A stretch of DNA of 58,347 bases, taken from the NCBI GenBank assembly GCA_964425275.1, contig CAYRLZ010000060.1, positions 1 through 58,347 of the forward strand, read 5' to 3'. Position 1 is the stretch's first letter. Every line of letters starts with the position of its first letter. The stretch is from an uncultured bacterium (GTDB lineage: Bacteria; Hydrothermota; Tepidihabitantia; Tepidihabitantales; JBDRVQ01). The position numbers and the translations under genes were made by a program. The notes beneath the pieces were generated by a model. That model saw only the letters and a list, made by a program, of their open reading frames with translations, was not told the DNA's origin and did not search any database. Positions 2,695 through 56,121 of the stretch are shown piece by piece.

Positions 2695-2714
2695 AAAGAG
2701 GAGAAAAATAAGAA

Positions 2715-2745
2715 GGCGGGAGAGATTTCTCCCGCCTTTTCTTTT
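2715..2745 (+). terminator. Rho-independent terminator, possibly bidirectional
   Basis: GGCGGGAGA (2715-2723), loop GATT, TCTCCCGCC (2728-2736), then TTTTCTTTT. An A-rich run lies on the other side. Confidence 0.7.
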
Positions 2746-2760
2746 ACTTGTGTAAGGCTA

Positions 2761-2928
2761 AGAAGGAGATTTAGAGGAGGACACAGAAAGAGGCACAGGG
2801 AGGGGAAGAAAGAACCTAACAGGGAGCCGGTCAGGAGGAGATAGAGAAGGGGGCTGAGAAAGGAGAAGAGAGGATAAGGAGATAGGGAAAAGGATTAGGG
2901 AAGGGATAGAGAAAGAGACAGGGTAAGA
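2761..2928 (-). repeat. Degenerate distal part of array A1. The 12-nt lattice fades into a polypyrimidine (minus strand) / polypurine (plus strand) tract.
   Basis: The plus strand is almost pure A/G. In-register 12-mers GATAGGGAAAAG, GATTAGGGAAGG, GATAGAGAAAGA and GACAGGGTAAGA lie at 2881-2928. There are many AGGAG/GGA motifs. Confidence 0.7.
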
Positions 2929-3144
2929 GACCGATAATAGCACTCCCAATAGGACGTTTTATAGGACCAAGAATAGCATCACCAATAGCATCCGGAATAG
3001 GACGGAGAATAGGAAAGGGAATAGAACACTCAGTAGGAAAGAGAATAGGATTCCCAATAGGTAAGAGAATAGAATCCTGAATAGAACCCCAAATAGGAAA
3101 GAGAATAGGGATTAGAATAGGACATTTAATACCATCCCGAATAG
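2929..3144 (-). repeat. Array A1: 18 phased 12-nt units with core CTATT (AATAG on the plus strand)
   Basis: Every plus-strand 12-mer from 2929 to 3144 ends in AATAG, with variants AATAC, AGTAG and TATAG. The strand given is the head-first orientation and is inferred. Confidence 0.9.
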
Positions 3145-3207
3145 CACCCCCTATACGACCCCCTATCTTTAAGGGAAAATCCCCTAAGTTTTGGATATTC
3201 AATCACT
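3145..3207 (-). other. A1 head: G-rich 12-mers AAGATAGGGGGT and CGTATAGGGGGT plus a conserved upstream block
   Basis: The minus-strand reading is AGTGATTGAATATCCAAAACTTAGGGGATTTTCCCTTAAAGATAGGGGGTCGTATAGGGGGT. It is homologous to the heads of A2, A3 and A4. Confidence 0.6.
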
Positions 3208-3282
3208 TAATACAAAAAATCGGGCTTAAAAAATATTACTGTCAGTAATATTTTCCTGGTATTCCCTTATGAACTCTTTGGA

Positions 3283-17911: not shown

Positions 17912-18724
17912 TCACATTAGCCGGAGGAGTCTTTTTATCTTTTCTTTAATCTTTTCATCAATCGGCTTCTGAAGTAAATCCTCAAAGATTTCTCGGGCTT
18001 CTTCTTTATTGCCATTTTTTAGGCAAATCTGGCCCAAAAGATAACTGGCCGCCATCGCCGTCGCCGTCTCAGGAAATTCTTTAGCGACATATTCAAAGTA
18101 GGTCTTGGCCGATACCAATTCTCCGGCCTGGTAGTACAAAAACCCGGCATCAAATTCTTTCTTGGCTAAGCGGTTATGAATTTCTATGAGGAGGCTATCC
18201 ATTTTAGAAAGAAAAGGGGAGTCAGGGTAGCGGTCCTTAAAATTGAGAATGAATTCCTTAGCCGTTAGAATTTCATTTTGGTCAAAGGTTTTTTTAGGAA
18301 TGGTGAAAATTACCGCGCAGACATATTTATAACTGGCTTCTTCCTGATATTTACTAACCGGGAAGTTTTTTAGGAAAAAGTCATACTCTTCCTTTGCCAA
18401 AAGATACTCTTTGCTTTTGAAATAACTCTCTGCCAAATAGAACTGGGCGTCTTCTACATAAATACTTCCCGGATGCTTGAAGATTATTTCATTGAAACTC
18501 CTTTTGGCTTCTTTATAATTTCCTTGATTTAGGTATTCTATCCCATTTTTTAGTAGCATCTCGGGTGGCATCGGTGGTTTCGTCAGCGGTCTTCGGGCAC
18601 AGCTCAGAGAGATGATGGCTGCCGCATTTATTAGCCAAAGAAGAAGTCTAATAATAGAATACAATTTACTTAATGGACTATTCTGGGTCATTTGATAGCG
18701 GCAATTTCCCCAAGCAATCTTCAC
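17912..18724 (-). CDS. TPR-repeat outer-membrane assembly lipoprotein, BamD/YfiO-like
   Basis: TPR-like repeats. The size and the position next to housekeeping genes fit. The start is either GTG 18724 or ATG 18691. Confidence 0.55.
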   Translation of the reverse strand: MKIAWGNCRYQMTQNSPLSKLYSIIRLLLWLINAAAIISLSCARRPLTKPPMPPEMLLKNGIEYLNQGNYKEAKRSFNEIIFKHPGSIYVEDAQFYLAESYFKSKEYLLAKEEYDFFLKNFPVSKYQEEASYKYVCAVIFTIPKKTFDQNEILTAKEFILNFKDRYPDSPFLSKMDSLLIEIHNRLAKKEFDAGFLYYQAGELVSAKTYFEYVAKEFPETATAMAASYLLGQICLKNGNKEEAREIFEDLLQKPIDEKIKEKIKRLLRLM

Positions 18725-19533
18725 AGATTTCCGATTACTTCTCTAATGAGGGTGGTCAATTTTGGCTCGGTCTCCCGAGCAATCTGAAGGATTTCTTTTA
18801 GGTCTACTGGTTTCATAGCATCCGGTAATCCCATATCGGTGACGACCGAAAGACCTAATACCTTAATACCAACCTGCCGGGCGACAATCACCTCTGGGAC
18901 AGTTGACATCCCTACTAAATCAGCCCCGAATAATCGGAAAAGACGATACTCAGCAGCGGTCTCCAAGTTCGGACCAGGCACGGCGATATATACTCCTTTA
19001 CGGACAGGAATCTTTAGCTCCAAGGCGGTCTTTTCGGTAAGGGCGATAAGTTCTGGGGCATAGCATTGATACATATCAGGGAAGCGCGGACCAAAATCTG
19101 GATCGGTGAGACCACGCAGTGGATTATCCGGCTGAAAATTTATGTGGTCAGTGATAATGACAATATCTCCGGGTCGGAAGAGTGAATTTAGACCACCAGC
19201 GGCATTGGAGACAATCATAATCTTGACTCCTAATTTTTTCATCAGGCGCACCGGTAGGGTAATCTCGGCCATTGAGTATCCTTCATAATAATGGAAACGT
19301 CCCAGAAAGGCGACGACCGCTCGCTTTTTTATATAACCAAAAATGAGGCTCCCTTCGTGGCTGGCCACCGTTGGTTTTGGGAAGTGGGGGATTTCGCGGT
19401 AAGGGATAATTTTAACCTTCTCAATCTCTTTTACTAACTTTCCGAGGCCAGTGCCAAGGATTATTCCAATCTTAGGCTTAAAATCAGTCTTGGCTCTAAT
19501 CTTTTCAAAACCTTCTTCAATCCAATTTTTCAT
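18721..19533 (-). CDS. Purine nucleoside phosphorylase (PNP/MTAP family)
   Basis: 270 aa, with GTGLGKL, NAAGGLN and GMSTVPEV blocks. Confidence 0.85.
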   Translation of the reverse strand: MKNWIEEGFEKIRAKTDFKPKIGIILGTGLGKLVKEIEKVKIIPYREIPHFPKPTVASHEGSLIFGYIKKRAVVAFLGRFHYYEGYSMAEITLPVRLMKKLGVKIMIVSNAAGGLNSLFRPGDIVIITDHINFQPDNPLRGLTDPDFGPRFPDMYQCYAPELIALTEKTALELKIPVRKGVYIAVPGPNLETAAEYRLFRLFGADLVGMSTVPEVIVARQVGIKVLGLSVVTDMGLPDAMKPVDLKEILQIARETEPKLTTLIREVIGNL

Positions 19534-22905: not shown

Positions 22906-23979
22906 TTAGGTCATTTCAATGAATCGTTGGAAAAGAAAAGTGGTATCATTAGGTCCGGGAGAACCTTCGGGATGAAATTGGACGGAGATTATTGGTAAAA
23001 CCCGATGGACCATCCCTTCAACCGTTCCATCATTAACATTGACCCAATTAAATTCAATCTCTTTAATATTTGACGACCGGGTGAGGGCATAGCCATGATT
23101 CTGAGAGGTAATAAATACCTTATTATTCTCTAAACTTTTTACCGGATGATTTACCCCCCGGTGCCCAAACTTCAACTTATAAGTCCTGAGACCCAGGGCA
23201 AGACCAAGAATCTGATGACCGAGACAGATGCCGAATATTGGATAGAGACCCAATAATTTCTTTACCGTTTGAACAGTGGTTGAGAGAATCTCCGGGTGAG
23301 CGGGATTACCCGGACCATTAGAGATAACGATACCTGAGGGATTTATTTTTCTGATTGTTTCAAAGGTAATGTTGTAGGGGGCTTGAATGACCGAAGAGAA
23401 TTTTAGCAGGTTGGTAATGATACTTTTTTTACACCCACAGTCGATCAAAAGAATTTTTTTCTTGTGGTGATTACGGTGGAAGATAATTTTTGGGCAGGAG
23501 ACCTTCCTCACCAAATTTTCGGTATCGGGATAGGGTAGTTTTTTAATCCGCTCTAAGATTTCCCGCCGGTTAAGTGACTTTTTAGTATTGGCGAGGATTG
23601 CCTTCATTGTTCCGTAATATCTTATCTTTAAGGTCAATGCCCTTGTGTCAATACCGCCGATACCCGGGATGCCCGCGGTGGTTAGATATTTAATAAGATT
23701 CTTCCGCCGGTAGGAAGAAAATGCCGGCTCTTTAGTAACCAGCCCCTGAATCTGAATCTTTGGGGACTCGCCCGATTTGGGTGAGAAACCATAATTACCG
23801 ATGAGGGGATAAGTCATTATCAGAATCTGACCGGCATAGGAGGGGTCGGTAAATGCCTCTTCATAGCCGGTCATTGCGGTATTGAAGACAATCTCACCAA
23901 AGACTTCTTTTTCAGCACCAAAGCCAATCCCTTCAATGAAGGTTCCATCTTCCAGAGCGAGGACCCCTTTTGAAACCAT
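22906..23979 (-). CDS. carA: Carbamoyl-phosphate synthase small (glutaminase) subunit
   Basis: GICLGHQ catalytic Cys motif and FHPEGSPGP. Confidence 0.95.
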   Translation of the reverse strand: MVSKGVLALEDGTFIEGIGFGAEKEVFGEIVFNTAMTGYEEAFTDPSYAGQILIMTYPLIGNYGFSPKSGESPKIQIQGLVTKEPAFSSYRRKNLIKYLTTAGIPGIGGIDTRALTLKIRYYGTMKAILANTKKSLNRREILERIKKLPYPDTENLVRKVSCPKIIFHRNHHKKKILLIDCGCKKSIITNLLKFSSVIQAPYNITFETIRKINPSGIVISNGPGNPAHPEILSTTVQTVKKLLGLYPIFGICLGHQILGLALGLRTYKLKFGHRGVNHPVKSLENNKVFITSQNHGYALTRSSNIKEIEFNWVNVNDGTVEGMVHRVLPIISVQFHPEGSPGPNDTTFLFQRFIEMT

Positions 23980-25390: not shown

Positions 25391-26344
25391 ATGGGGAGAG
25401 ACCCAAAGTTGTTGAAGTTTTTGGACCTAATTTTAGATGGGGGATTTTCGGATATCCGACCGGTCTTTGACCCAAAAACCGAAAAACTGGTCCGTTATCC
25501 GGAGATTGAGCAGGCCTTAGAAAAGAATGCGGCTTTTGTCTCCCGACTCATTGAAGACCTAATTCGGCTCGGCTATTTAAAACGGTCATTCCTTTCTAAG
25601 ATGGTAATCTGTCCGGTCTGCAATTCCCCAGATTTGAGGTATCAAACATTCTGTCATAAGTGTGACTCCCCTTATATTGTAAAAATAAAGATGTTAGAAC
25701 ACCTCTTCTGTAATTATGTAGGAAAAGAGGAAGAGTTCCAGAATGGCCAGCGGCTAATCTGTCCCAAATGTCAAAAGGAACTCTTTATTATTGGTGATGA
25801 TTACAATAGCCCGGGATATAATTATCGGTGTTGTGAGTGTGGGGCAATCAGTCCAACCCCAAAAGAGAAATGGTTCTGTCCCAAGTGCGAAAATTTAATT
25901 GAGCGAGAAGAATTGAAAGATGTTATCCTGTTTTCCTATAAGGTAAACCGCCAGGAGATAGAAAGGCTCCGCAGGGAACGATTGCCGCGGGAAAGGATTA
26001 TAAATATCTTAAAGAAAGATGGCTATGAAGTTGAGGAGAATACGAGGCAAGTCGGTCGCTCCGGCGCCGAACATGAGATAGATATCCTGGCAACCAAATA
26101 TTCTGGGTCAACAACTCATCGGTTAGTGATTGGGTTTTCGATAAATGAGACCGAGATTGATTCCGAAGATGTGATAAAACTTTATGCCAAGGGTTATGAT
26201 GTAAATGCCCAGGATGTAATCTTGGTGGCAATTCCGAAACTATCCCCGGATGCCGAGAATTTTGCCCGACACTATCGGATAAAGGTATTTGAAGAGAAGG
26301 ACTTGGAAAGGTTGGAAGAGGAATTTGCTAGCGCCACCCAATAA
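25391..26344 (+). CDS. wHTH-like / multi-zinc-ribbon / PD-(D/E)xK-like nuclease-fold protein
   Basis: CxxC pairs: CPVC..CHKC, CPKC..CCEC, CPKC. C-terminal GRSGAEHEIDILA...VIGFS block resembles Mrr-type restriction-endonuclease folds. Confidence 0.6.
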   Translation: MGRDPKLLKFLDLILDGGFSDIRPVFDPKTEKLVRYPEIEQALEKNAAFVSRLIEDLIRLGYLKRSFLSKMVICPVCNSPDLRYQTFCHKCDSPYIVKIKMLEHLFCNYVGKEEEFQNGQRLICPKCQKELFIIGDDYNSPGYNYRCCECGAISPTPKEKWFCPKCENLIEREELKDVILFSYKVNRQEIERLRRERLPRERIINILKKDGYEVEENTRQVGRSGAEHEIDILATKYSGSTTHRLVIGFSINETEIDSEDVIKLYAKGYDVNAQDVILVAIPKLSPDAENFARHYRIKVFEEKDLERLEEEFASATQ

Positions 26345-29636: not shown

Positions 29637-29808
29637 TTGTTAAATCAATAACTTATATTTTTTGGCAATTTATATCGGGAGGTAAAAATGAAAGGATTAA
29701 ACTGACACCTAAGGCGTAAAGCGTAGAGCGTTAAACGTATAGCGTATTTTCTAATTCGCACCGCAGGGGATTTTTCTTTTTGGAAAGGGGGGAGTGCTAC
29801 AGGGGGTG
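29637..29808 (+). other. A2 leader/head
   Basis: TTGTTAAATCAATAACTTATATTTTTTGG (29637-29665). Five GCGTA-like heptads (29713-29746). GGGGATTTTTCTTTTTGGAAAGGGGGGAGTGCTACAGGGGGT (29766-29808) is homologous to the A1 head. Confidence 0.55.
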
Positions 29809-30024
29809 CTATTCGGGATGGTATTAAATGCCCTATTTTCTACCCTATTCTCTTGCCTATTCGGAATTCTATTCGGTAGCCTATTCTCTTGCCTATTGGT
29901 AATTCTATTCTTTATCCTATTGAGCGTTCTATTCCCTTTCCTATTAGGAGTTCTATTCTCGGTCCTATTGGGGATGCTATTGTGAGTTCTATTCTCTTTC
30001 CTATTCTATGTTCTATTCTTGGAG
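29809..30024 (+). repeat. Array A2: 18 phased 12-nt units with core CTATT
   Basis: CTATT (once GTATT) occurs at 29809 + 12n for n = 0..17. Collinear with A1. Confidence 0.9.
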
Positions 30025-30071
30025 AAGTAGAGAATTTAATTCTGATTTATTTTATTATGGATAATTGAAGA

Positions 30072-35417: not shown

Positions 35418-36458
35418 TTATTCGGTGGTTGGTAAGAATAATTTAGCGTATCTTCGGATGTCCTCTAAGATCTTCCCCGCGCCCAGGACAACACAGTCTA
35501 CTGGATTCTGGGGGATATGAACCGCAAGACCGGTCTCTTCGGAGATGAGGGTATCAATCCCTTTCAATAAAGAACCACCGCCGGCCATATAGATACCCCG
35601 GTCAACGATATCCGCGGCCAGTTCCGGTGGTGTTCTCTCTAAGGCTTGTCTTATTGCGTCAATTATTAAAGAGATTGGTTCTTCTAAGGCCTCTCTGATT
35701 TTGGAGGCGGTGACCTTTATCGTCTTGGGGATTCCGGAGACTAAGTCCCGCCCCTTTACCTCGCATTGTTCATCTTCACCGGTGGCGTAGGCCGAGGCAA
35801 TTTTAATCTTAACCATCTCCGCCATCTGTTCGCCAATTATTAAGTTGTAATTCTTCTTCACATAGTTGATAATTGCCTCATCCATTTCATCACCCGCCAC
35901 CCTTATGGAGATGGCGTTGACGATGCCAGAAAGGGCGATGACAGCAATTTCGGTTGTCCCGCCACCGATGTCAATTATCATACTGCCGGTTGGGTCTTCA
36001 ACGGGTAGTCCGACGCCCAGGGCCGCAGCAATCGGTTCCGAGACGAGATAAATCTCTCGGGCACCACAGGCCTCTACCGAATCCCGAACCGCGCGCTTTT
36101 CGACTCCGGTAATTCCGGAGGGCACGCAGATAACAACCCTGGGTCGCACAAACATCCGTTTCTTTTGAACCTTTTGGATAAAATAATGGAGCATCACCTC
36201 AACTAGTGCAAAGTCAGCAATCACCCCATCTTTCATTGGTCTAATTGCCCGCATCCCTTCCGGGGTTCTACCGAGCATCTTCTTTGCTTCCAATCCGACC
36301 GCGACCGGTTTGTGGTCTCGTTCTTCAATGGCGACGATTGATGGCTCGCGCAGGAGAATTCCCTTTTCCTTCACATAGATGAGGGTAGAGGAAGTGCCCA
36401 GGTCAATTGCCAGGTCATTAGAAAACCTTTCCTTAATATCTTTAAATAGTCCAAGCAT
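35418..36458 (-). CDS. mreB: Actin-like rod shape protein MreB
   Basis: DLGTSSTLIY, DIGGGTTE and other actin-fold motifs. Confidence 0.95.
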   Translation of the reverse strand: MLGLFKDIKERFSNDLAIDLGTSSTLIYVKEKGILLREPSIVAIEERDHKPVAVGLEAKKMLGRTPEGMRAIRPMKDGVIADFALVEVMLHYFIQKVQKKRMFVRPRVVICVPSGITGVEKRAVRDSVEACGAREIYLVSEPIAAALGVGLPVEDPTGSMIIDIGGGTTEIAVIALSGIVNAISIRVAGDEMDEAIINYVKKNYNLIIGEQMAEMVKIKIASAYATGEDEQCEVKGRDLVSGIPKTIKVTASKIREALEEPISLIIDAIRQALERTPPELAADIVDRGIYMAGGGSLLKGIDTLISEETGLAVHIPQNPVDCVVLGAGKILEDIRRYAKLFLPTTE

Positions 36459-37003: not shown

Positions 37004-37087
37004 GCCGAGGTGGCGGAATTGGCAGACGCGCTAGGCTCAGGACTTAGTGGGTTTCCACCCGTAGGGGTTCAAATCCCCTCCTCGGCA
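37004..37087 (+). tRNA. tRNA-Leu (anticodon CAG), type II with a long variable arm; CCA not encoded
   Basis: Hand-folded cloverleaf. Acceptor GCCGAGG/CCTCGGC. Anticodon stem CTAGG/CTTAG with loop CTCAGGA. 15-nt variable arm. T arm AGGGG-TTCAAAT-CCCCT. Confidence 0.9.
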
Positions 37088-40497: not shown

Positions 40498-40643
40498 TGG
40501 ATCGCCCAATCACCAAGCAAAGACCTTTAATGCCTCGTAATGCCTCGCGGAAATCACCACCAGAAAGCCCCTGCTTTCTTTAGAGGTTTAAGGTATAAAA
40601 TCATATTTTATGCCCCTGTGCCGGTTTTTATCACAAAAACCTG

Positions 40644-40835
40644 ATTTTCAATTAGACTTGGAATTAGAAAGAGAATTAGAGAGAGAATTACTAACCCAAT
40701 TAGTTAAAGAATTAGTCTGACAATTAGACACTTAATTACCCTTTCGGTTTGGCAGAGGATTAGTTAGAGAATTAGACAGTAAATTAGGCATTCAATTAGG
40801 CTGGGGATTACGTAAAGAATTAGATAATAAATTAG
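40644..40835 (-). repeat. Array A3: 16 phased 12-nt units with core CTAATT (AATTAG on the plus strand)
   Basis: ATTAG/ATTAC occurs on the plus strand at 40651 + 12n. One unit lacks the core (CAAACCGAAAGG). Confidence 0.9.
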
Positions 40836-40911
40836 ACCCAAAAGGCAACCCAGAGGGCTACCCCCTATCTTTCTTAAAAAATCAAATAAGTTATGTTAAA
40901 TCAAAGACTTA
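40836..40911 (-). other. A3 head: conserved block plus AAGATAGGGGGT, AGCCCTCTGGGT and TGCCTTTTGGGT
   Basis: About 90% identical by hand alignment to 50376-50450. Confidence 0.6.
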
Positions 40912-46391: not shown

Positions 46392-47588
46392 ATGCGACGG
46401 ATAAAACTTGGTAAGCGATTTATCATTATCTACTTTGTGTTTGGTTCCTGTCTTTTGGCAATTTTCTGGTTTTTCTTCTCCGCCCAGCTGCTAAAAAGAT
46501 TAGCGGAGGAGACTGAGGTCCGCTCCCGAATTTTTGCCAAGTATATGTCCCGAATCACAGAGGCGATGGAGGCCAGTTCCACGGAATTGGATATAATCTT
46601 TGAAGAGGTGATTAAGAAGATTGACTTTCCCTTAATGCTCACCGATGACCAGGGCAATATTGTGAGTTACCGGAATTTGGGCAAAAATCTCTCGCTCAAG
46701 GATTTACAGAGGATAAAAGAACGATTGGGGCGAAGGCAAAAGCCAATCCCCCTTACCTTTGTTAGCGAAGAAGGCGAGCAGTTTTTGGGTGAGATATATT
46801 ATGGGCAATCAAAGACCGCCCAGTTTGTTTCACTTTTTCCTTATCTCCAGATTTTCTTTCTCGTCGTCTTTCTACTAATTGGCGGGTGGGCAATCGTCGT
46901 TTATAAAAGACGGGAAGAAGAGAAGTTGTGGACATTTTTAGCCAAGGAGACCGCGCACCAATTGGCGACCCCCCTCTCTTCTTTTTCCGGCTGGCTGGTA
47001 AATCTCCAGTCCACTAATCCGCAAATTGTCAAGGAGATGGAGGCGGATATTGAACGAATGAGCCGGGTATTAGAAAGATTCTCCCGCATCGGACAGACAC
47101 CTAAATTATCCCCCTGTTCAATCAAAGAGGTGATTGAAGAGACCTATCATTTTATCCAACGAAGAACACCCCAGAATATCAATATGGTTCTCAATATTAA
47201 GGAGGATGCCTCACTTCTCCTGGATGAAGTCTTATTATCCTGGAGTTTAGAGAATCTCTTAAAAAATAGTATTGATGCCATCGGCCAAAAACCCGGGGCG
47301 ATTATCTTAAACGCCCAAAAGGAGCCGGGCGGCCGATATTATAAAATTTCTATAACCGATACCGGTGAAGGAATATCCCACAAGAAAAAGAAGGAGATAT
47401 TTTCCCCAGGGATAACAACTAAGAAATATGGCTGGGGTGTTGGTTTGCCCCTGGCGAAAAGAATTGTTGAGGAATACCATAAAGGAAAATTGGTTTTGGT
47501 TGAATCAAAAAAGGGGAAGACAATTTTTTCTATCCTTTTACCCTTAGGAGGTATTGAACGGAAAAATTATGCGGGTCCTCTGGATTGA
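46392..47588 (+). CDS. Membrane sensor histidine kinase (PorY-like by context)
   Basis: Two TM segments flank an approximately 110-aa loop. H box ETAHQLATPL, N box LKNSIDA, G boxes DTGEG and GWGVGL. Confidence 0.85.
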   Translation: MRRIKLGKRFIIIYFVFGSCLLAIFWFFFSAQLLKRLAEETEVRSRIFAKYMSRITEAMEASSTELDIIFEEVIKKIDFPLMLTDDQGNIVSYRNLGKNLSLKDLQRIKERLGRRQKPIPLTFVSEEGEQFLGEIYYGQSKTAQFVSLFPYLQIFFLVVFLLIGGWAIVVYKRREEEKLWTFLAKETAHQLATPLSSFSGWLVNLQSTNPQIVKEMEADIERMSRVLERFSRIGQTPKLSPCSIKEVIEETYHFIQRRTPQNINMVLNIKEDASLLLDEVLLSWSLENLLKNSIDAIGQKPGAIILNAQKEPGGRYYKISITDTGEGISHKKKKEIFSPGITTKKYGWGVGLPLAKRIVEEYHKGKLVLVESKKGKTIFSILLPLGGIERKNYAGPLD

Positions 47589-49080
47589 TGATGAGATTGA
47601 ATTACTGAACCCCTATATCTATCTCTTAAAGGAGAGGGGCTACGAGGTGGATACGGCGGCTAATGGTCCGGATGGCTTGCGGCTCGTTACGACCAAAGGC
47701 TATGATTTGATATTCGTTGACCAGATGATGCCCGGGGTAGAAGGCCTGGCGGTGGTGGAGGCAATTAAAGGCTTTGACCCTTCCGCGGTGATTGTGATGG
47801 TGACAAAATTGGGTGAAGAGGAACTGATGGAGGAGGCTTATTCTAAATTAGTGGACGATTTCATCGTCAAGCCTTTCTCTCCTCATCAGATAATCTCGGT
47901 GGTGAAGCGATTATTAGAGAAGAGAAAGATTATTACTGAAAAGTTGACCCGAGACTATCTTGCGTTCCTGCGGGAGGAGAGGAATTTTAATTCCTTTACC
48001 GAATGGCGTGATTATTACCTCCGATTGATCCGTTGGCGATTTCTCATTGAAAGATTTGGCGAAGAGAGTTTAAAAGAGACCCTAGGTGATATTCAGCGAC
48101 AGGCGAATGATGACTTTGCTTGCTTTGTGGAGGAGATTTATCCCTCCTGGTTGGAGGGAAAAGAAGAGCCACCGCTTTTATCCCATAAGGTCTTTGGTAA
48201 TCTTTTGGCACCTTATCTTCGAGAAAAACCGTTATACTTCTTTATCTTTGATTCAATGCGGCTTGACCAGTGGTATCTTTTAGTTCCCCTCCTAAAAGAA
48301 TACTTCAATATCCGACAATTTTACTATCTATCAATCTTACCTTCGGCGACGCCCTATTCCCGCAATGCCTTGCTCTCCGGACTTTTGCCCTTAGAAATTC
48401 ATACCCGATATCCTAATCTCTGGGTTTTTGATGAGATGGGACAGAACCGTTACGAGAAAGAACTCCTCGCCAAACTTTTGGCCCAAGAGAAAATTGGTGG
48501 CCCTTGGTTTTATTTGAAGGCGACGAAGAGTGAAGATATTGAAGAACAGAGGGGAATGCTCTTACGGAAGGATGTCCGATTTGCCTGTATCGTAGTAAAT
48601 TTTCTTGACTTTCTTCTCCATGCGGCCAGACCGGCTAAGCCGCTGGAGGATATTTTGGAAAACGAAAGTTCTTTCTTACAACTGACCCGAACCTGGTTTG
48701 CCAATTCACCCTTCTTTGAATTTATCAAGGAATTGGCGAATCAGGACTGCCGGGTGATAATTACTACTGACCATGGTTTCATCAAGGTCAAAAGACCAAC
48801 CATCATCTTTGGTGATATGGAAATATCATCCAATCTCCGATACAAACATGGCTCGGCTTTAAGGACAGAGGGGCGAAATGCCCTGCTCGTTTTTCCGGAG
48901 AGGCTTGGATTACCCAAGGCCAGCCCAGATGAGAAGATGGCGATTGCCAAATCCGATTTTTATTTCATCTACCCGACAAAACCGACTCAATACGAAAGGA
49001 CCTATAAATTTACCTACCAGCACGGTGGTATATCTCTGGAGGAGATGATTCTGCCTTTGGGGATCTTAGAGAAGCGGTGA
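47569..49080 (+). CDS. porX: Response regulator with CheY receiver and PglZ/alkaline-phosphatase-superfamily domain (PorX-like)
   Basis: Start at ATG 47569 (MRVLWIDDE). Receiver Asp in IFVDQMMPG. C-terminal PglZ-like blocks (FFIFDSMRLDQW, ITTDHGF). Confidence 0.75.
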   Translation: MRVLWIDDEIELLNPYIYLLKERGYEVDTAANGPDGLRLVTTKGYDLIFVDQMMPGVEGLAVVEAIKGFDPSAVIVMVTKLGEEELMEEAYSKLVDDFIVKPFSPHQIISVVKRLLEKRKIITEKLTRDYLAFLREERNFNSFTEWRDYYLRLIRWRFLIERFGEESLKETLGDIQRQANDDFACFVEEIYPSWLEGKEEPPLLSHKVFGNLLAPYLREKPLYFFIFDSMRLDQWYLLVPLLKEYFNIRQFYYLSILPSATPYSRNALLSGLLPLEIHTRYPNLWVFDEMGQNRYEKELLAKLLAQEKIGGPWFYLKATKSEDIEEQRGMLLRKDVRFACIVVNFLDFLLHAARPAKPLEDILENESSFLQLTRTWFANSPFFEFIKELANQDCRVIITTDHGFIKVKRPTIIFGDMEISSNLRYKHGSALRTEGRNALLVFPERLGLPKASPDEKMAIAKSDFYFIYPTKPTQYERTYKFTYQHGGISLEEMILPLGILEKR

Positions 49081-50129
49081 TGCGTTTTATTGAATTGCCA
49101 TTGATGTCTTTGGAGATGAAGCCCGGGCTGGTTCGTTTTACCACACCGCTGATTATCGAACCGAAGGGTCTAAAATCCCTGGCGGAAGATTTCTTTAATC
49201 TATTTAAGGAGAAGATTTATCCCGAGGCAAAAAAACTTGGCGCGCCCAAGAAGGAGGCAAATGCCGATACCTTCCCTATCTATTTAACCAATCGGGAAAT
49301 TGCCTACCTAAATTTTGTCTATGATATCGACCACACCCGATTATCCTTTGAGACCCCTAAAAAAGAACTCACCGAGCCTTTATTCCGGCTTTTGCGGGAA
49401 CAGCGAATAATCAAACCGGACTTAGAGTATATTCGGGAGAAGGTCTTCGGTGGACTACGGGAGGTGGTGGCCGCTTTACTCTGGCAGGTCGGGGCGATAA
49501 AGGTTAGTCTCGGTGATATCAGACCATTCTTTAAGGTTGACGAGCGGAAAAACCAGAGCCCAATTTATATTGATGTGAAGTGCTTGCCTAACTTTCCTCT
49601 GGTCTTTGATTTTTTAATCAGCCAGTCGGCCTTAATCCTCCAACACTACGATTTTGACCTCATCTGTGGGATTGAAGCCGGCAGTATCGCCTTTGCCACT
49701 GCCCTGGCTCAGAAGTTTAACCGACCAAGTTTCTTTGCCCGTCGGGAGCGACGTTACCCTGAGGCATCACTCTTGGAAGGGATAAAAGACCACGAGATTT
49801 TTAAGAAAAAGGTTTTGCTCTTTGATGATACGATTGTTAAGGGCTGGACAAAGCGGCGCGTGGTTGAAGCCCTGCGGCAAAAGGGGGCAATCTGTGAATA
49901 TACCTTTGTCATCTTTGACCGTCTGCAAGGAGGGAAGGAAGACCTTTTGGCCTTAGACTGTCAGTTACTCTCTTTAACCGACCGTGATGCCCTCCTTTCC
50001 AAAAGGATTCCGAAGGCCATCACTTTACTTACAGAAATGGAATATAAGGAAATTCTGGAATACTTCGCTGACCCAAAGAAGTGGCATAATAAAAAAGGTT
50101 TCCCTTATTTTGAGTTGAAACCAAAGTAA
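49077..50129 (+). CDS. Type I phosphoribosyltransferase (orotate-PRTase-like) with an unassigned N-terminal extension of about 125 aa
   Basis: PRPP motif VLLFDDTIVKGWT. PyrE-like SPIYIDVKCL block. The start overlaps the porX-like stop (ATGA-type overlap: ATG 49077-49079, TGA 49078-49080). Confidence 0.7.
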   Translation: MMRFIELPLMSLEMKPGLVRFTTPLIIEPKGLKSLAEDFFNLFKEKIYPEAKKLGAPKKEANADTFPIYLTNREIAYLNFVYDIDHTRLSFETPKKELTEPLFRLLREQRIIKPDLEYIREKVFGGLREVVAALLWQVGAIKVSLGDIRPFFKVDERKNQSPIYIDVKCLPNFPLVFDFLISQSALILQHYDFDLICGIEAGSIAFATALAQKFNRPSFFARRERRYPEASLLEGIKDHEIFKKKVLLFDDTIVKGWTKRRVVEALRQKGAICEYTFVIFDRLQGGKEDLLALDCQLLSLTDRDALLSKRIPKAITLLTEMEYKEILEYFADPKKWHNKKGFPYFELKPK

Positions 50130-50159
50130 AAAATTAAACACTTATCTCTTTACTTCCTC

Positions 50160-50375
50160 CTAATCAATTAGGTAGAGAATTAGACTCGGAATTAGACTAT
50201 CAATTAGACCGAGAATTAGACAGAGGATTAGCCACAGGAGTACTTCTTCCATTAGTTAGAGAATTAGGATGGCGATTAGACACTTAATTAGCCTTTCGGT
50301 TAGAAAAAGAATTAGTTAGAGAATTAGCCGCTCAATTAGTATCTGGATTAGGCGGAGAATTACACCGAGAATTAA
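50160..50375 (-). repeat. Array A4: 18 phased 12-nt units with core CTAATT
   Basis: ATTAG or a variant occurs on the plus strand at 50167 + 12n. It contains the same core-less unit CTAACCGAAAGG followed by CTAATTAAGTGT as A3. Confidence 0.9.
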
Positions 50376-50450
50376 ACCCGGAAGGCGACCCAGAGGGCAA
50401 CCCCCTATCTTTTTAAAAAATCCCATAAGTTCTGTTAAATCAAAGGCTTA
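50376..50450 (-). other. A4 head: conserved block plus AAGATAGGGGGT, TGCCCTCTGGGT and CGCCTTCCGGGT
   Basis: See the A3 head. The minus-strand reading is TAAGCCTTTGATTTAACAGAACTTATGGGATTTTTTAAAAAGATAGGGGGTTGCCCTCTGGGTCGCCTTCCGGGT. Confidence 0.6.
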
Positions 50451-50471
50451 TACCAAAAAAGGGTATTTGGA

Positions 50472-50507
50472 AACCGGAAGTATATTTCTGGAAGTATACT
50501 TCTGGTT
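50472..50507 (-). terminator. Long hairpin between the lnt-C25 gene and the A4 head; possible terminator
   Basis: AACCGGAAGTATA / TATACTTCTGGTT arms (one G-T pair) with a 10-nt loop. On the minus strand a T6 run follows only after 12 nt, so this is not canonical. Confidence 0.3.
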
Positions 50508-50685
50508 AATTTTGCAACAGGTGATAATTTACTGGCTATAAATTTGGCTCTTCATAACTTCCCGGGAGGAGACCTTTGAAAAAGGCCTGATGATAGCGAT
50601 AAAAGCAAGATGGACATATCGTTAATAGAGGGGTTAAGACTTTTTCACTGTTGACAAAATCTCTTTCCGGGTAATCTTGGGTGGG

Positions 50686-53600
50686 TTATTTTATCAAAAT
50701 CACCTTTCGGGAGATAGAGAAATCCTTGGTCTGTAAAGAGAAGAAATAGATACCGGGTGGTAGGCTTCTTTTTCTCTGGTCTTTGCCATCCCATGTTGCC
50801 GTATAAATGCCCGGCTCTTTCACACCCCTGGTTATTGGCCGAACCAAACGACCGGTAATATCATAGATGTTTAATGATAGCCACTGTCGGTTGGGGATTT
50901 GGTACCGGATATTTGTCCTTTGCCGAAATGGATTGGAGTAAGTCAAACTGAATAACGGGCTTTCATAGGGGAGATAATTAGGTGCGGTCACGGTTATGAT
51001 GATTTCGTCCCTTTCTTCTCCGTTGATTGGGAATTTTATCTGCCCATCTTTATCGGTAGTGCCGTAATAGTAGAAATCCGGTGAGAGGGGTTTTGTTAGA
51101 CAGACCAATGCCTTTGGGATTGGTTGGCCGGTGATACTATCCTTTACCTCAACGACAAAAATCTGGGAACCCAAAAATTTATGAGAAACAACCATCGGTT
51201 TTGGGACCTTGGTCCAGATATTCAGTTCCGGGTCACCTAAAAGGCTCCACTCCCGATAGAAATATTCGTTAGCGTCTCCGGAATAGGGAGGAGAGGCGAT
51301 GCTATCCTTGCCTCTTAGAAATGCCTTCCCCAAAATTAAATTATCATTAACCATAACCGTCCGGAGGAAGGTTCGGACGAACCGACCGCGCCAGCGGCCA
51401 AAGCCGCCACCGAGCTGGGTTCCGAAAAAGGCCACGGCACCCTTTAAGTCTTCTCCTCCCCCTTTCACCCGCAGCCACCGCTCACCAACCGTGTTTTCAC
51501 TCTTAAAGATTGTATGGCAGGAACCAGAGATAATTATTGGCAATTTATAACCATTCTGTAACCTTTCGTCCTCCGGCTCAACCGTGAAGGGATAGGCCCA
51601 GTTGCCTGAGGCATGCCCCCGATAGAGAACGAGACTGCTTCCTTCATTTAAGGAGGCGATTATATCATCGGCATCGTCATATCCTTGATGACCAAAGAGT
51701 GTGTCGTTAAAGATTGTGTCAACCTTTGAATAGCGGAGACGGAGGATTGAATCATCATAAGGGAACTCCTCGCTATAAATTGGGTTAGCCGGTCGGCCGC
51801 CAAAGTCCCACATAAATATCAGCGTCGCCCTTTTATACCAGAGGGTATCTTCTCTTTTTGGGAAGCGCTCATAGGTTAAAATCTTTTGCACCATCGTCTG
51901 ACATTCGTCAACATTCCGACAGGGAAGTCGTCCGACCGGTATCTCCGCCCGGTAATCGCCTTCCATATCACCATAAAAATTGTCGCCCAATAAGAGTTGG
52001 TAAGAGTAATAAAGGGAGTCCCCGGGTGGGATATAATTTTTATCCCCAACCAGAAGGAGATACTCCGGACCGATAGATTTTATAATCCTCTTTATTGAAT
52101 CCGGCGAGGCACGATAAGGAACCTTTACAATCTCGGCCTTTACCCCTTTCTTGGTCTTCCACTCTTTTAATGGCTGGAGGGCATCAAAAAACTTCTCATT
52201 AGTGATTATAAGATAACGGCAATCAGTAGCGCCATTGACGATTACCGCACTAAATACAAAAATTAAAAGTCCAACCGACTTCCTCCGATGCAAGCTACCG
52301 CCGGCCATTCTCAGAATGAGAATGATTATTGAAAGATAGATAAACCAATCACCAAATCGCAAATAGAAAGTAGAGGGTAATGGTTTCGGAAGATTTCCGT
52401 AAAGAACCATTTCGGTAAAGAGGGGGGTCTTTTTAATCACCTCACCATAAGGAGAGACGATTAAAGAAATTCCATTATTCGCCGAGCGCAGAAGTGGTTT
52501 CCCCAATTCCACACTCCTCATTACCGCTAACTCGCAATGCTGATAAGGTCCGGGTGTCTTACCAAACCAACCGTCATTGGTAATATTTACCAGAAGGTCG
52601 GCTCCCCTTAAAACAAATTCCCGGGTTAAATCCGGAAAAATTGACTCAAAACAGATAAGGCAACTGGCTTTAGCCAAAGGGGTGGAAAAGACGGTGAATT
52701 CCTTTCCTGGGGTAAAATTTCCCATATCCGCGGTAGCAAAGGGCTTAAAAATTGGGAACTTGTCAATGTAAGGAATCCTTTCGGAGAAAGGGACCGGATG
52801 AATCTTCTTATAAATTCCGGTAATGCCATTTTCCGGGTCAATCAAAACCGCGCCGTTAAAGTAAGCGTTATCCTCATAGATTGGTGTTCCGATTAAGATA
52901 TAGACCCCGTAAGTCTGGCTAATTCTTAAAAACTCATCTTTTAGCCAAATCTCTTTGGTCAAATCAAATAAGGAGGCGGTCTCCGGATAGATTAAAAGGA
53001 AAGGCTTTTCTTTTATCGCCTCTTGAGTCAATTGGAGTAAAGAGCGGATATTCTCTTCTATCGTGCTTCTATCCCCCTTCTCATTCGGGCTGACATTGGG
53101 CTGAATGATTGCCACCTTAAAATTATTCTCTACCCCTTTCATTCGCAAAAGACCATAGGAAAGAGGAATGAGAAAGGTGAGGATTAAAGTTATCGCCCAT
53201 CTTTTCTTTCTGGTAAAGAGTAATTGATAGATTATAAGATTTAAAAAAACGACAAAGGCGGAAAGACCATAGACACCGGTGATGGAGGCGAATTGGATTA
53301 AGGGCAAATAAGGGGTCTGGGTATAACCCAAAAGACCCCAGGGAAAGCCAATCTCTGACTTTGTGCGGATAAACTCAAGGAGTGCCCAGAGCAAAGGGGC
53401 GATAAATAATCCGAACTTCTTCACCCCCAAACCAAAGACCAATCCGTAGAGACCAAAATAACCAAAGAGGACGAAAACTCCAAGGTAGAGAAGAAATTTC
53501 GTCTTCTCCAAAACCGGCACGACCAAAAAATAAAGCCACCAGAGATGAAAAAGGGCAAAGAGGAAAAAGAAGAGGAAGGAATAAAAGAGTGCCTTTTTGA

Positions 53601-53733
53601 GCGATGACTTTGTAATCAAATAAAAGAGCGGGACTAAGGAGAAGTAGGCGAGGAAGCGGAAGGGAAAAGGGGAAAAGGCAAGGTTTAAGGCGAAGGGCGA
53701 GAGAAAGAAAAGAACTTTCCCAAACTTACCCAT
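50686..53733 (-). CDS. lnt: In-frame fusion of apolipoprotein N-acyltransferase (Lnt), C25 gingipain-like cysteine peptidase and T9SS CTD
   Basis: Residues 1-475 hold 8 TM segments and a CN-hydrolase domain (IYPETA, CLICFES, NITNDGWF). From Met476 (nt 52308) there is a signal-peptide-like segment, then C25 blocks (YLLLVGD..IP, VGRLP, YRGHASGNW, IIISGSCHT). The C-terminal CTD contains NIYDITGRLV...PGIYFFSL. Confidence 0.8.
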   Translation of the reverse strand: MGKFGKVLFFLSPFALNLAFSPFPFRFLAYFSLVPLFYLITKSSLKKALFYSFLFFFLFALFHLWWLYFLVVPVLEKTKFLLYLGVFVLFGYFGLYGLVFGLGVKKFGLFIAPLLWALLEFIRTKSEIGFPWGLLGYTQTPYLPLIQFASITGVYGLSAFVVFLNLIIYQLLFTRKKRWAITLILTFLIPLSYGLLRMKGVENNFKVAIIQPNVSPNEKGDRSTIEENIRSLLQLTQEAIKEKPFLLIYPETASLFDLTKEIWLKDEFLRISQTYGVYILIGTPIYEDNAYFNGAVLIDPENGITGIYKKIHPVPFSERIPYIDKFPIFKPFATADMGNFTPGKEFTVFSTPLAKASCLICFESIFPDLTREFVLRGADLLVNITNDGWFGKTPGPYQHCELAVMRSVELGKPLLRSANNGISLIVSPYGEVIKKTPLFTEMVLYGNLPKPLPSTFYLRFGDWFIYLSIIILILRMAGGSLHRRKSVGLLIFVFSAVIVNGATDCRYLIITNEKFFDALQPLKEWKTKKGVKAEIVKVPYRASPDSIKRIIKSIGPEYLLLVGDKNYIPPGDSLYYSYQLLLGDNFYGDMEGDYRAEIPVGRLPCRNVDECQTMVQKILTYERFPKREDTLWYKRATLIFMWDFGGRPANPIYSEEFPYDDSILRLRYSKVDTIFNDTLFGHQGYDDADDIIASLNEGSSLVLYRGHASGNWAYPFTVEPEDERLQNGYKLPIIISGSCHTIFKSENTVGERWLRVKGGGEDLKGAVAFFGTQLGGGFGRWRGRFVRTFLRTVMVNDNLILGKAFLRGKDSIASPPYSGDANEYFYREWSLLGDPELNIWTKVPKPMVVSHKFLGSQIFVVEVKDSITGQPIPKALVCLTKPLSPDFYYYGTTDKDGQIKFPINGEERDEIIITVTAPNYLPYESPLFSLTYSNPFRQRTNIRYQIPNRQWLSLNIYDITGRLVRPITRGVKEPGIYTATWDGKDQRKRSLPPGIYFFSLQTKDFSISRKVILIK

Positions 53734-54694: not shown

Positions 54695-55168
54695 TCACTT
54701 CTTATATTTTTCAATGTAATACTCCTCTGAGTAAGATGGCAAATCCTCCTTAGAAATAATTTCAAACTCAATCTTATTCTCATGAAGAAATTTAGTTATG
54801 CTTAGTAAAGGGAGATCTAAAAAATAAATTTTATTTACGTCGCTATACTCAAATTTTACATTCTTACCTCTCCATTCCGCTTCCCAGAAGGGCATGTCAT
54901 AAAAATCTTGGCTATTTTCTTCCACATCGTACCGATAAGGATAAATTTTGTTTTTCTCCATTAAGCGTCTTGCCGATAATTCAATTATTACATCACCGTA
55001 GAAAGAAAGATAATCGCTCAAAATATCCGAAAAGCTAATAGTATCTTCGTCATAGCCACTTATTCGCCTTCCTTTTGGAGTAAAAACTTTTTCTTCCAGT
55101 ATAGCAATAAGGTTACTTAGAGATGTTGCGTGATATAAATACTTTGGGAAATTGCCTCCTTTTTTCAT
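54695..55168 (-). CDS. Unknown 157-aa protein inserted between the methyltransferase and the candidate endonuclease
   Basis: The start overlaps the MTase stop (ATGA). N-terminal LYHATSLSNLIAILEE and central WEAEWR motifs. Confidence 0.6.
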   Translation of the reverse strand: MKKGGNFPKYLYHATSLSNLIAILEEKVFTPKGRRISGYDEDTISFSDILSDYLSFYGDVIIELSARRLMEKNKIYPYRYDVEENSQDFYDMPFWEAEWRGKNVKFEYSDVNKIYFLDLPLLSITKFLHENKIEFEIISKEDLPSYSEEYYIEKYKK

Positions 55169-56121
55169 TCAACCACCTCTAAGTTTAGATAATTGTTTAT
55201 GTATTTTTTACCTGTAAATGATAAGTCAAGTATCTTTAATGAACATTTAAACCTTTGTTCTATGCCTTTTACATACTTCGGATTGACTTCGATCATAACG
55301 AAATCCCTTTTTAATGCCTGTGCCACATATCCAGTTGTTCCTGTCCCCGCTACAGGGTCCAAAACCAAATCTCCTTCCTTGGTCGATACCAAAATCACTC
55401 TCCTAAGAAGTTCTATCGGTTTTTGTGTAGAGTGTAGCTTTTTCCCACTTTCATCTTTTAGTCTTTCATCACCCCAGCAGAGAGGTAAAACCCAAACATT
55501 TGCACCAACTTTTCCGATGCCAAACCTTTTGGCGTATTCTTTATTAAAAGTGTATCCCTTAACATGTTTATCCTTTACCGCCCAAATTAAGGTCTCGGTA
55601 GCATTTGTGAACCTCACACCTAACCAATTGGGCATTGGGTTGGTCTTTACCCAAATCACATCGTTGAGAATCCAATAGCCTAAATCTTGCATAATTTTCC
55701 CAATTCTAAAAATGCTGTGGTAAGTAGCAATAACCCAAATTGTAGCAGTTTTTTTCATTACTCTTTTTACCTCCGTGAGCAATTTTTTGATAAATTCATC
55801 GTATTCTTGAAAAGAGGAAAATTTATCCCATTCGTCATTTACCCCTTCAACAACAGTTTTTACCTTCCACCGTCTTAATTCTTTATTTGGTAACTGCAAA
55901 AAATAAGGCGGGTCAATAAAAACCATGTCAAAGACCTCGTCTTCTATTCTTGGGAGAACCTGGAAGGTGTCGCCTAAGATAACTTTATTTCTGATTTCGT
56001 CAATTTTATAAATAGCCTTCCGGTCATTATCCTTTACCAATATCCTCCTACCTTTTCTTTGGCGTCTTTCGTATTTAAACAGAATTTCCTGTTTGGTTTT
56101 AGATTTATCTTTTTCTCCCAT
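55165..56121 (-). CDS. Beta-class N6-adenine (or N4-cytosine) DNA methyltransferase, CcrM/M.HinfI-like
   Basis: FIDPPYF first, then IWVIATYHSIFRIG, NDVIWVKTNPMPN, FTNATETLIWA, HSTQKP and DPVAGTGTTG. This circularly permuted motif order is that of beta-class enzymes. Confidence 0.9.
   Translation of the reverse strand: MGEKDKSKTKQEILFKYERRQRKGRRILVKDNDRKAIYKIDEIRNKVILGDTFQVLPRIEDEVFDMVFIDPPYFLQLPNKELRRWKVKTVVEGVNDEWDKFSSFQEYDEFIKKLLTEVKRVMKKTATIWVIATYHSIFRIGKIMQDLGYWILNDVIWVKTNPMPNWLGVRFTNATETLIWAVKDKHVKGYTFNKEYAKRFGIGKVGANVWVLPLCWGDERLKDESGKKLHSTQKPIELLRRVILVSTKEGDLVLDPVAGTGTTGYVAQALKRDFVMIEVNPKYVKGIEQRFKCSLKILDLSFTGKKYINNYLNLEVVE

Follow-up and report, generated by a model that had tools for sequence, protein, structure and literature searches.

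The A4 locus and its repeat register

The stretch of DNA analysed in this study, hereafter the window, is the 58,347-nt contig CAYRLZ010000060.1 (assembly GCA_964425275.1) of an uncultured bacterium, and the element in question is A4, a minus-strand array of 12-nt units in an intergenic region of this contig. Candidate division WOR-3 is the annotated source of homologues of the flanking phosphoribosyltransferase and of MurA and RlmN. As the original prediction had placed it, A4 lies between the 3′ end of a convergent phosphoribosyltransferase gene (49077-50129, plus strand), the stop codon of which is 30 nt from the array, and a hairpin (50476-50505) downstream of the lnt-C25 gene. The latter, a LNT_N/CN_hydrolase/Peptidase_C25/Por_Secre_tail fusion gene (50686-53733), occupies the same minus strand, with A4 downstream of it. 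The start of the phosphoribosyltransferase gene overlaps the end of a response-regulator-PglZ (PorX-like) gene (47554-49080) by 4 nt. The features of the locus are given below, where A3 is a paralogous array in the window and L188 is a homologous locus in another contig.

50160..50375, minus strand: A4 body, 18 units of 12 nt, each consisting of the core CTAATT and a 6-nt semi-variable spacer
50280..50303, minus strand: landmark pair CTAACCGAAAGG + CTAATTAAGTGT (A4 units 7-8), conserved in A3 and L188
50376..50411, minus strand: G-rich head, three units in the 12-nt register (AAGATAGGGGGT TGCCCTCTGGGT CGCCTTCCGGGT)
50412..50443, minus strand: promoter-like box TTGATTTAACAGAACTTATGGGATTTTTTAAAA, with constant spacing to the head
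50476..50505: palindromic hairpin, with the lnt-C25 gene on one side and the box on the other, followed by a T-run on the plus strand
50090..50159, minus strand: probable 3′ end region of the presumed A4 transcript, an AU-rich hairpin and then AAGGGAAACCTTTTTT

The A4 array is real and is one copy of a multi-locus family found in candidate-division WOR-3 bacteria. Its 18 minus-strand units, read from 50375 down to 50160, matched letter for letter the list given in the original prediction. The pentamer CTAAT occurs 14 times in 50160-50375, with all of its spacings being multiples of 12. The extended pattern CTAAT-N7-CTAAT-N7-CTAAT has 12 matches in the window, all on the minus strand within A3 or A4, and had no match in 100 dinucleotide-preserving shuffles. 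When a column-conservation detector was applied with periods of 8-16, demanding at least four columns invariant in at least eight of nine successive units, period 12 alone scored, and it did so at just four loci of the window (2916-3163, 29789-30050, 40617-40845 and 50157-50394); Tandem Repeats Finder pointed to the same four places. Within the units, the core positions are 83-100% invariant and the spacer positions are mixed, with only positions 11 and 12 biased (towards G-U; mostly G at position 11 and mostly T at position 12 in the A4 DNA). The base composition of A4 includes 22% C and 14% G. The 12-nt register also reaches beyond 50375, into the three G-rich in-phase units located upstream (50411-50376).

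Paralogous and homologous loci

Four paralogous loci, A1-A4, are situated among housekeeping genes within 58 kb and have a common layout, in which an upstream box is followed by a phased G-rich head and a body of 16-18 units. The other three loci are the following.

40644..40904, minus strand: A3, with the box (40904), the head (40871-40836) and 16 CTAATT units (40835-40644)
2713..3202, minus strand: A1, with the box (3202), a variant head with two AUAGGGGGU units and ~18 xCTATT units (3145-2929)
29785..30024, plus strand: A2, with a degenerate box, the head and 18 xCTATT units

The box and head of A3 are the same as those of A4. The core is xCTATT with a 6-nt spacer (that is, CTATT + 7) in A1 and A2 versus CTAATT + 6 in A3 and A4, and the period is 12 in both cases. 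Like A4, A1 and A2 are convergent with their neighbouring genes.

In a metagenome scan with the head pattern, L136 and L188 were the true homologues among the matches listed. L188 carries the box, the head and 16 CTAATT units, and is ~80% identical to both A3 and A4 over ~270 nt. L136 carries the box, the head and ~19 xCTATT units; it is 78% identical to A1, and its array shares 91% identity with A2 over 215 nt. Past an intrinsic terminator, L136 contains another gene that combines this box with a GGGTATCG head and a CU-rich body, in which the 12-nt periodicity is weaker; that body corresponds to a CT-rich tail fused to A1. CU-rich sibling genes with the box and a GATAGGGG-type head occur in L248 and L369-371. 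Additionally, the database “protein” P0362 is the read-through translation of another L136-type locus.

The flanks of L136 and L188 have nothing in common with the window, and the window's arrays are absent from the relatives' loci that are syntenic for phosphoribosyltransferase, MurA or RlmN; the unit therefore behaves like an independent gene, one subject to movement or turnover. No copy of the box with the head was found in viral contigs, where the array pattern matched only unrelated repeats, and the pattern CTAWT-N7 x4 gave only simple satellites and coding repeats among the matches listed for genome contigs.

A more distant type is found in L374-377 and L380, where a period-12 array has an HTH-RlmN operon on one side and a gene of unknown function on the other. 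The conserved end of L374/L380, read on the minus strand, is TTGATT-N17-GATATT-N7-TAGGGGGTATGGCGGGGTAGCGGTATAGG, which has the geometry and the head of the window arrays (nhmmer E=2e-7). The form AGCC-NNNN-GGGU is also that of A3/A4 head units 2-3. The array locus of L374, L380 and L381 has a divergent XRE-type HTH gene as its neighbour. At the RlmN-syntenic locus of L381 (640-870, minus strand), only the promoter and a degenerate head of an L374-type gene are left; there is no body, and the place of the array is taken by an unidentified ORF-like stretch.

Two side observations concern these loci. The CT-rich tail of A1 (window 2750-2930, minus strand) is a separate gene in L136 (4870-5260, plus strand), with its own box and head behind a terminator, and the CT-rich gene is likewise separate from the array at the locus translated as P0362. 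A1 with its tail looks like a fusion, in which the intervening terminator and promoter were presumably lost. The head pattern also matched an unrelated dispersed element, present in more than 100 copies in L126-L245 (metagenomes Ga0307488/Ga0307489; for example, L155 490-700), with ~45-nt inverted repeats (GGGGCTTACACTCGTCCACTTTTCGGCTCAAC...) around 5-10 G-rich units of ~11-12 nt (TTTAGGGGGTGT). This element looks like a miniature inverted-repeat transposable element with an internal G-rich array, and the contigs carrying it are rich in other short-period repeats.

Gene-like boundaries

Within the window, the box TTGATTTAACAGAACTTATGGGATTTTTTAAAA occurs only at the arrays, upstream of A1, A3 and A4, with a degenerate copy at A2. 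Its geometry is sigma-70-like: TTGATT, 17 nt, a hexamer, and then 7-8 nt to the head. The A4 head contains a GGGGG/CCCUC stem with a 3-nt loop, and transcription of A4 would probably start near GATAGG. At the other end, AU-rich hairpins and AAGGGAAACCUUUUUU are located 10-70 nt past the last A4 unit, in the region (50090-50159) that overlaps the last codons of the convergent phosphoribosyltransferase gene; a canonical terminator downstream of A4 was not scored in a terminator scan. A1 has a terminator on either side: that of the upstream gene (3311-3295) comes before the box, and the body is followed by the CT-rich tail of ~190 nt, which ends at a strong terminator of its own (2738-2713). In L136, the array gene and the second gene with the same box have an intrinsic terminator (4831-4853) between them. 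Moreover, the orientation of the body relative to the box is identical in all six of the window-type loci. The loci thus look like independent transcription units, with transcription and its strand being presumed from these features.

At ~45 nt upstream of the box, A1 (window 3225-3250, minus strand) and L136 (4452-4475, plus strand) carry the perfect palindrome AATATTACTG(A/T)CAGTAATATT and then a T-run. In A3, the corresponding position is taken by another palindrome (CTATAAC..GTTATAG), and then CCGATTTTT in common. The palindromes of A1, L136 and A3 may serve as a terminator upstream of the unit or as its operator.

Collinearity, landmark units and selection

According to the original prediction, A3 and A4 are partly collinear and share a core-less unit as an internal landmark. 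When the units were counted in register from the head, the A4 pair CTAACCGAAAGG + CTAATTAAGTGT indeed corresponded to A3 CAAACCGAAAGG + GTAATTAAGTGT, CTAATTCTCTAA was found one unit above the pair in both arrays, and the distal A4 unit CTAATTCCGAGT was correctly assigned to A3 CTAATTCCAAGT. In the same register, A4 and L188 correspond unit for unit, the core-less landmark included, and A3 has one extra unit ahead of the landmark. The unit-blind MAFFT alignment contained a single gap of exactly 12 nt between A3 and A4.

The collinearity was evaluated by unit-level alignment of the 6-nt spacer halves alone, with 5000 permutations of the unit order as the null.

A3-A4: all units, p=0.0026; landmark units removed, p=0.13
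A4-L188: all units, p<2e-4; landmark units removed, p<2e-4
A3-L188: all units, p=2e-4; landmark units removed, p=0.006

The claim of A3/A4 collinearity beyond the head was therefore upheld for the full set of units and lost significance without the two landmark units, so the signal between these paralogues comes mostly from the landmark and its immediate neighbours. At the same time, the claim that selection acts on the whole molecule gained from L188, which comes from another organism, keeps the landmark and matches A4 throughout. As judged from these alignments, the data support a constraint acting on the molecule as a whole, beyond the repeated core.

A different outcome was obtained for the suggestion that the landmark unit forms a hairpin dividing the array into halves. 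The landmark regions with CCGAAAGG fold no better than shuffles (z +0.3, +0.7 and +1.4), the minimum free energy of the L188 variant CCGAAAGU is 0 kcal/mol, and the landmark splits the arrays into 6+2+10, 7+2+7 and 6+2+8 units (A4, A3 and L188, respectively). As an alternative role for the landmark, an 8-bp long-range helix between head unit 3 (CCUUNNGG) and CCGAAAGG was noted, which RNAalifold predicted independently. Paired positions of the CCUUNNGG-CCGAAAGG helix amount to 92% in the three sequences versus 25-67% with the partner slid, and compensatory changes are absent; this head-landmark helix is a candidate from modelling.

The indels inside the window-type arrays comprise whole 12-nt units in all cases; those of the CTATT family include two further ones, both of exactly 12 nt. 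The syntenic pair L374/L380 was used for calibration against the 4-fold degenerate sites of five flanking genes, which are 40-61% identical. A crude alignment of units gave an identity of 65% for the L374/L380 array (p=3e-5 vs 0.5) and of 63% for its non-core positions (p=0.005), these figures being approximate because the first few units are out of register by 1 nt and there is one 11-nt gap. The ~65 nt at one end of this array, which form the head, are ~95% identical. These comparisons indicate that selection acts on the nucleotides and on the phase.

Coding on either strand was considered and rejected, since A3, A4 and L188 contain stops and no frame is open through all of the homologues. 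In these three loci, stops occur in all six frames, with one to three in the best frame and no start codon; the stops of the best sense frame, (L-I-x-x)n, fall in conserved CTCTAA units. Moreover, variation in the core is seen at a first codon position, with the third positions being invariant. A1, L136a and L374 each have one fully open frame, which appears to be due to chance in pyrimidine-rich repeats. When the chance ORF over A1 was used in an exhaustive protein search, four weak hits resulted, of which only P0362 is a translated homologous locus. CUA makes up 9% of the Leu codons, a value uninformative for the idea of a rare-codon CUA array.

RNA structure

Global secondary structure was tried as a conserved property and rejected: the minimum free energies equal those of shuffles, with fold z-scores of +0.18 for A4, -0.42 for A3, +1.0 for A2 and -1.0 for the minus strand of L374. 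In RNAalifold, the covariation term of the CTAATT family was ~0, with only three compensatory pairs, all in a doubtfully aligned 3′ stretch, and no compensatory pairs were obtained for the CTATT family. A second helix, between the head G-run and a CU-rich unit two-thirds down the body, also recurred in the predictions; neither long-range helix is established, because the G-run pairs with almost any CU-rich unit. The absence of stable structure fits a single-stranded display of motifs. A search of the whole window against Rfam 15 at gathering thresholds returned only a tRNA gene (37004-37087, plus strand), and an E-value scan of 50000-50700 gave chance-level hits only.

Genomic surroundings

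The window is ordinary chromosome, encoding Ffh, MreBC, PBP2, RodA, RlmN, MurA, IspG, CarAB, Fmt/Def and several T9SS-type cargo proteins. Neither a GC-skew switch nor a replication origin suggesting a centromere role was found in the window, and Pfam scans of 50 ORFs, virtually all of the large non-overlapping ones, revealed no repeat-binding or partition NTPase gene and no cas domains.

Some neighbouring genes are of interest in their own right. The single 1015-aa ORF at 50686-53733 joins an apolipoprotein N-acyltransferase, a C25 peptidase and a T9SS C-terminal sorting domain, and this fusion of a lipoprotein-maturation enzyme with a gingipain/PorU-like protease is unusual. The region 46392-50129 (plus strand) encodes a histidine kinase, the PorX-like regulator and the 350-aa phosphoribosyltransferase protein in one apparent operon; in relatives with 72-76% identity, the phosphoribosyltransferase gene is followed by those for ClpC and BamA instead. 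A TackOD1 domain and an Mrr-type restriction endonuclease domain are present in one protein (25391-26344, plus strand), and an N6/N4 DNA methylase gene is located at 55165-56121. At many ORFs, a near-consensus TTGACA-N17-TATAAT promoter ends only ~5-10 nt before the start codon (for example, 5087, 18721-19533, 22906-23979, 35418-36458 and 45085), and a Shine-Dalgarno sequence is present in few window genes, which suggests that leaderless or very short-leader mRNAs are widespread in the host.

Proposed function and alternative explanations

On the sequence features described above, the family probably consists of non-coding RNA genes. The explanation that we favour, tentatively and at somewhat less than an even chance, is that A4 is a stand-alone small RNA in which ~18 single-stranded motifs, set at constant intervals, are offered to a binder that is cooperative or oligomeric. 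A minus-strand non-coding RNA of ~250-330 nt would be produced from the family-specific box (50443-50412), with a start near GATAGGGGG. At its 5′ end would be a short G-rich head containing a stem-loop, and the remainder would be a tail of little structure with ~18 CUAAUU motifs, one every 12 nt. This tail would serve as a multivalent, regularly spaced docking platform for a polymerising, ring- or filament-shaped binder, at one protomer per 12 nt, and the RNA would sequester or scaffold the binder. For related specificities, there would be sister RNAs with different cores (YCUAUU, CU-rich). We infer transcription, strand, protein partner and sequestration from the sequence. A bolder version, which we regard as conceivable but rather unlikely, is a new class of bacterial “phased-repeat RNAs” in which the 12-nt register, and not the fold, would be functional. 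Such a register might template a helical or ring ribonucleoprotein polymer, or zippers with complementary phased RNAs (CUA- with UAG-type, e.g. L374); the swappable cores (CUAAUU, YCUAUU, GGUAGC, CU-rich) would be address codes, and a dedicated non-canonical promoter would drive a WOR-3-wide system without a described counterpart.

Several observations weigh against a small RNA with a pyrimidine-rich display tail. The second hexamer of the box is TTTTTT or TTTTCC, a poor match, and a consensus scan scored no canonical sigma-70 promoter at the box. The box is a family-specific element and not the housekeeping promoter, because the protein genes of the host commonly have a near-consensus TTGACA-N17-TATAAT directly upstream of the start codon; an extracytoplasmic function (ECF)-like reading of the box, GAACTT-N16-AGATA, is a conjecture. 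No candidate gene for an RNA-binding protein was seen in the window or linked to any array. Known sponge RNAs need no strict phasing, and we know of no direct bacterial precedent for the phase mechanism. Finally, relative to the promoter, the L374/L380 body is G-rich, with the core (G/A)UAG(C/A)(C/A), which is the reverse complement of the CUA type, and it is the units on the opposite strand (e.g. GCTATCTCCCGT) that resemble the window sense units. This body possibly arose by expansion of a G-rich head-type unit, or else the orientation of the body may have been flipped with respect to the promoter. A pyrimidine-rich single strand is thus not universal in the family, and the head and the 12-nt phase remain so.

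It is mainly because of this reverse-complement core that a function at the DNA level is kept in play. The main rival, an unlikely one in our estimation, is a DNA iteron array, in which a cooperative protein would form a nucleoprotein filament along the 12-bp repeats and so control or organise the neighbouring promoter or region, any transcript being incidental. Tandem direct repeats with an invariant short core, strict spacing and a period that is kept when the core length changes are what such an array would have; a core reverse-complemented with respect to the shared promoter and head is tolerable for a double-stranded site, an XRE-type HTH gene adjoins the locus in L374, L380 and L381, and 12-bp iterons have a precedent in TubR/tubC, which we count in its favour. 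Nevertheless, none of the window arrays has a linked gene for partition or repeat binding, and they stand among chromosomal housekeeping genes. The constant orientation of the body to the box, the terminators bracketing the units like genes, the conservation of spacer halves between orthologues and the retained landmark all speak against iterons, as does the mismatch of a 12-bp period with the DNA helical repeat. Pairing between RNAs has also to be considered, although we think it quite unlikely: the pyrimidine-rich body could be a platform that pairs with the G-rich head of its own or a sibling RNA, with G-rich L374-type RNAs or with Shine-Dalgarno-like mRNA regions, acting as an antisense sponge or forming intermolecular networks. 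Read by eye, the A4 head AGAUAGGGGGUU can pair at 12 positions (three of them G-U) with unit 13 and the start of unit 14 (AAUCCUCUGUCU), and the helix of the head with unit 13 appears in the minimum-free-energy, centroid and consensus folds. Further, the A1/A2 head units AUAGGGGG are complementary to CCUAU cores, the landmark is complementary to head unit 3, and the L374/L380 bodies are complement-type with the same 12-nt period. However, these helices lack compensatory changes, the folding energies equal those of shuffles, and the G-run pairs promiscuously with any CU-rich stretch, which makes the complementarity unspecific; the complementary array types were not seen together in one genome, and few genes here use Shine-Dalgarno sequences.

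As a more specific form of the protein-platform idea, A4 could be a decoy or super-site for a general transcription or RNA-decay factor that reads regularly spaced pyrimidine-rich RNA, such as the Rho hexamer, NusA KH domains or RNase E-type nucleases. The arrays are untranslated and unstructured, C exceeds G in A4 and each core contains AUU; in addition, Rho primary sites take ~10-13 nt per protomer, and C every ~12 nt has been described for rut sites. We nonetheless hold this to be improbable: a YC dinucleotide is much less specific than the invariant core of 5-6 nt, the promoter-sense strand of the L374/L380 bodies is G-rich, and a strong rut site would terminate its own transcript. That the arrays are a functionless minisatellite or the remnant of a mobile element in intergenic DNA would agree with non-syntenic loci between relatives, several copies per genome and the head-only remnant in L381. 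This is made highly improbable by units that are not identical, as they would be in slippage satellites, by cores that stay invariant while spacers diverge, and by whole-unit indels, together with the L374/L380 array exceeding the identity of 4-fold sites and the box and head standing at fixed spacing; terminal inverted repeats or transposase genes were not seen. A protein-coding repeat of four residues, (L-I-x-x)n on the minus strand or (L-x-x-E)n on the plus strand, is barely credible. It would account for a period of 12 nt (four codons), for the open frames in A1, L136a and L374 and for P0362 as such a translation, but the stops in A3, A4 and L188, two of them at conserved units, the missing start codon and the invariant third codon positions all oppose it.

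Comparison with known systems

CsrB/RsmY/RsmZ and CrcZ are, like the RNA proposed for A4, stand-alone non-coding RNAs with many copies of a short motif, multi-copy paralogues and a presumed titration of the binder. In CsrB/Rsm RNAs, the motifs are GGA (or A-rich), irregularly spaced and mostly located in hairpin loops, in contrast to CUAAUU/CUAUU at exactly 12 nt without stable hairpins. The per-position counts revealed no GGA (ANGGA) core in A4, the series of hairpins typical of CsrB/Rsm is lacking in the A4 and A3 folds (z +0.18 and -0.42, without supported covariation), and no CsrB/Rsm covariance-model match was obtained from Rfam 15. In the TRAP/trp leader system of Bacillus, a single-stranded, regularly spaced motif is wound around a ring, one motif per protomer, as proposed here. 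The TRAP tract has 11 (G/U)AG triplets with 2-3-nt spacers (period 5-6) in a 5′ leader, whereas A4 has period 12 and 18 units, is separate and is convergent with its neighbour. No TRAP-like gene was seen, and A4 is not in the 5′ leader of an operon, as it converges with the downstream gene. The nearest mechanistic analogue would be the TRAP-trp leader and the nearest functional one CsrB/RsmZ.

Among DNA elements, TubR/tubC, ParR/parC and the omega heptads share with the window arrays tandem direct repeats of ~7-12 bp with a conserved core, the 12-bp unit being that of tubC. Arrays of the tubC/parC type consist of ~4-10 repeats beside partition or repressor genes on plasmids or phages and are bound cooperatively as filaments. 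In contrast, the window contains four chromosomal arrays of 16-18 units, with gene-like promoter/terminator boundaries and without a linked binding gene. A ToxI-type antitoxin is likewise a tandem-repeat non-coding RNA with its own promoter (here, a promoter-like box), but its units are pseudoknots of ~34-45 nt directly upstream of a toxin gene, as opposed to 12-nt units in varied contexts. No endoribonuclease toxin gene lies beside A4, whose neighbours encode the phosphoribosyltransferase and the Lnt-C25 fusion, and the other arrays have other neighbours. CRISPR arrays have repeats of 23-50 nt, unique spacers of similar length and cas genes, unlike a 6-nt core with 6-nt spacers that are conserved between species. 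The rut regions are untranslated, weakly structured RNA with C exceeding G, a profile that A4, with its excess of C over G and no excess structure, may share, and the ~12-nt spacing is compatible with one site per Rho protomer; however, rut sites have no invariant 5-6-nt core or strict phase, and in the related L374/L380 bodies the promoter-sense strand is G-rich.

The family is apparently undescribed: it is outside Rfam 15, and it differs from the known systems compared here. If transcribed, its members would be multi-copy RNA genes of an uncultivated phylum in which the conserved property is the exact 12-nt metric, and not the secondary structure. Comparative RNA discovery mostly seeks covarying helices and would miss such a class. 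The family could provide an entry point, as a defined RNA bait, to an oligomeric RNA- or DNA-binding protein in WOR-3 and related lineages, and it gives a dedicated promoter motif for the definition of a regulon; if acting as DNA, the loci would be iteron arrays on a chromosome, unusually long and unusually numerous. On the evidence of its sequence, A4 would be best described as a new architectural variant of the multivalent repeat RNAs or, should it function as DNA, of iteron arrays.

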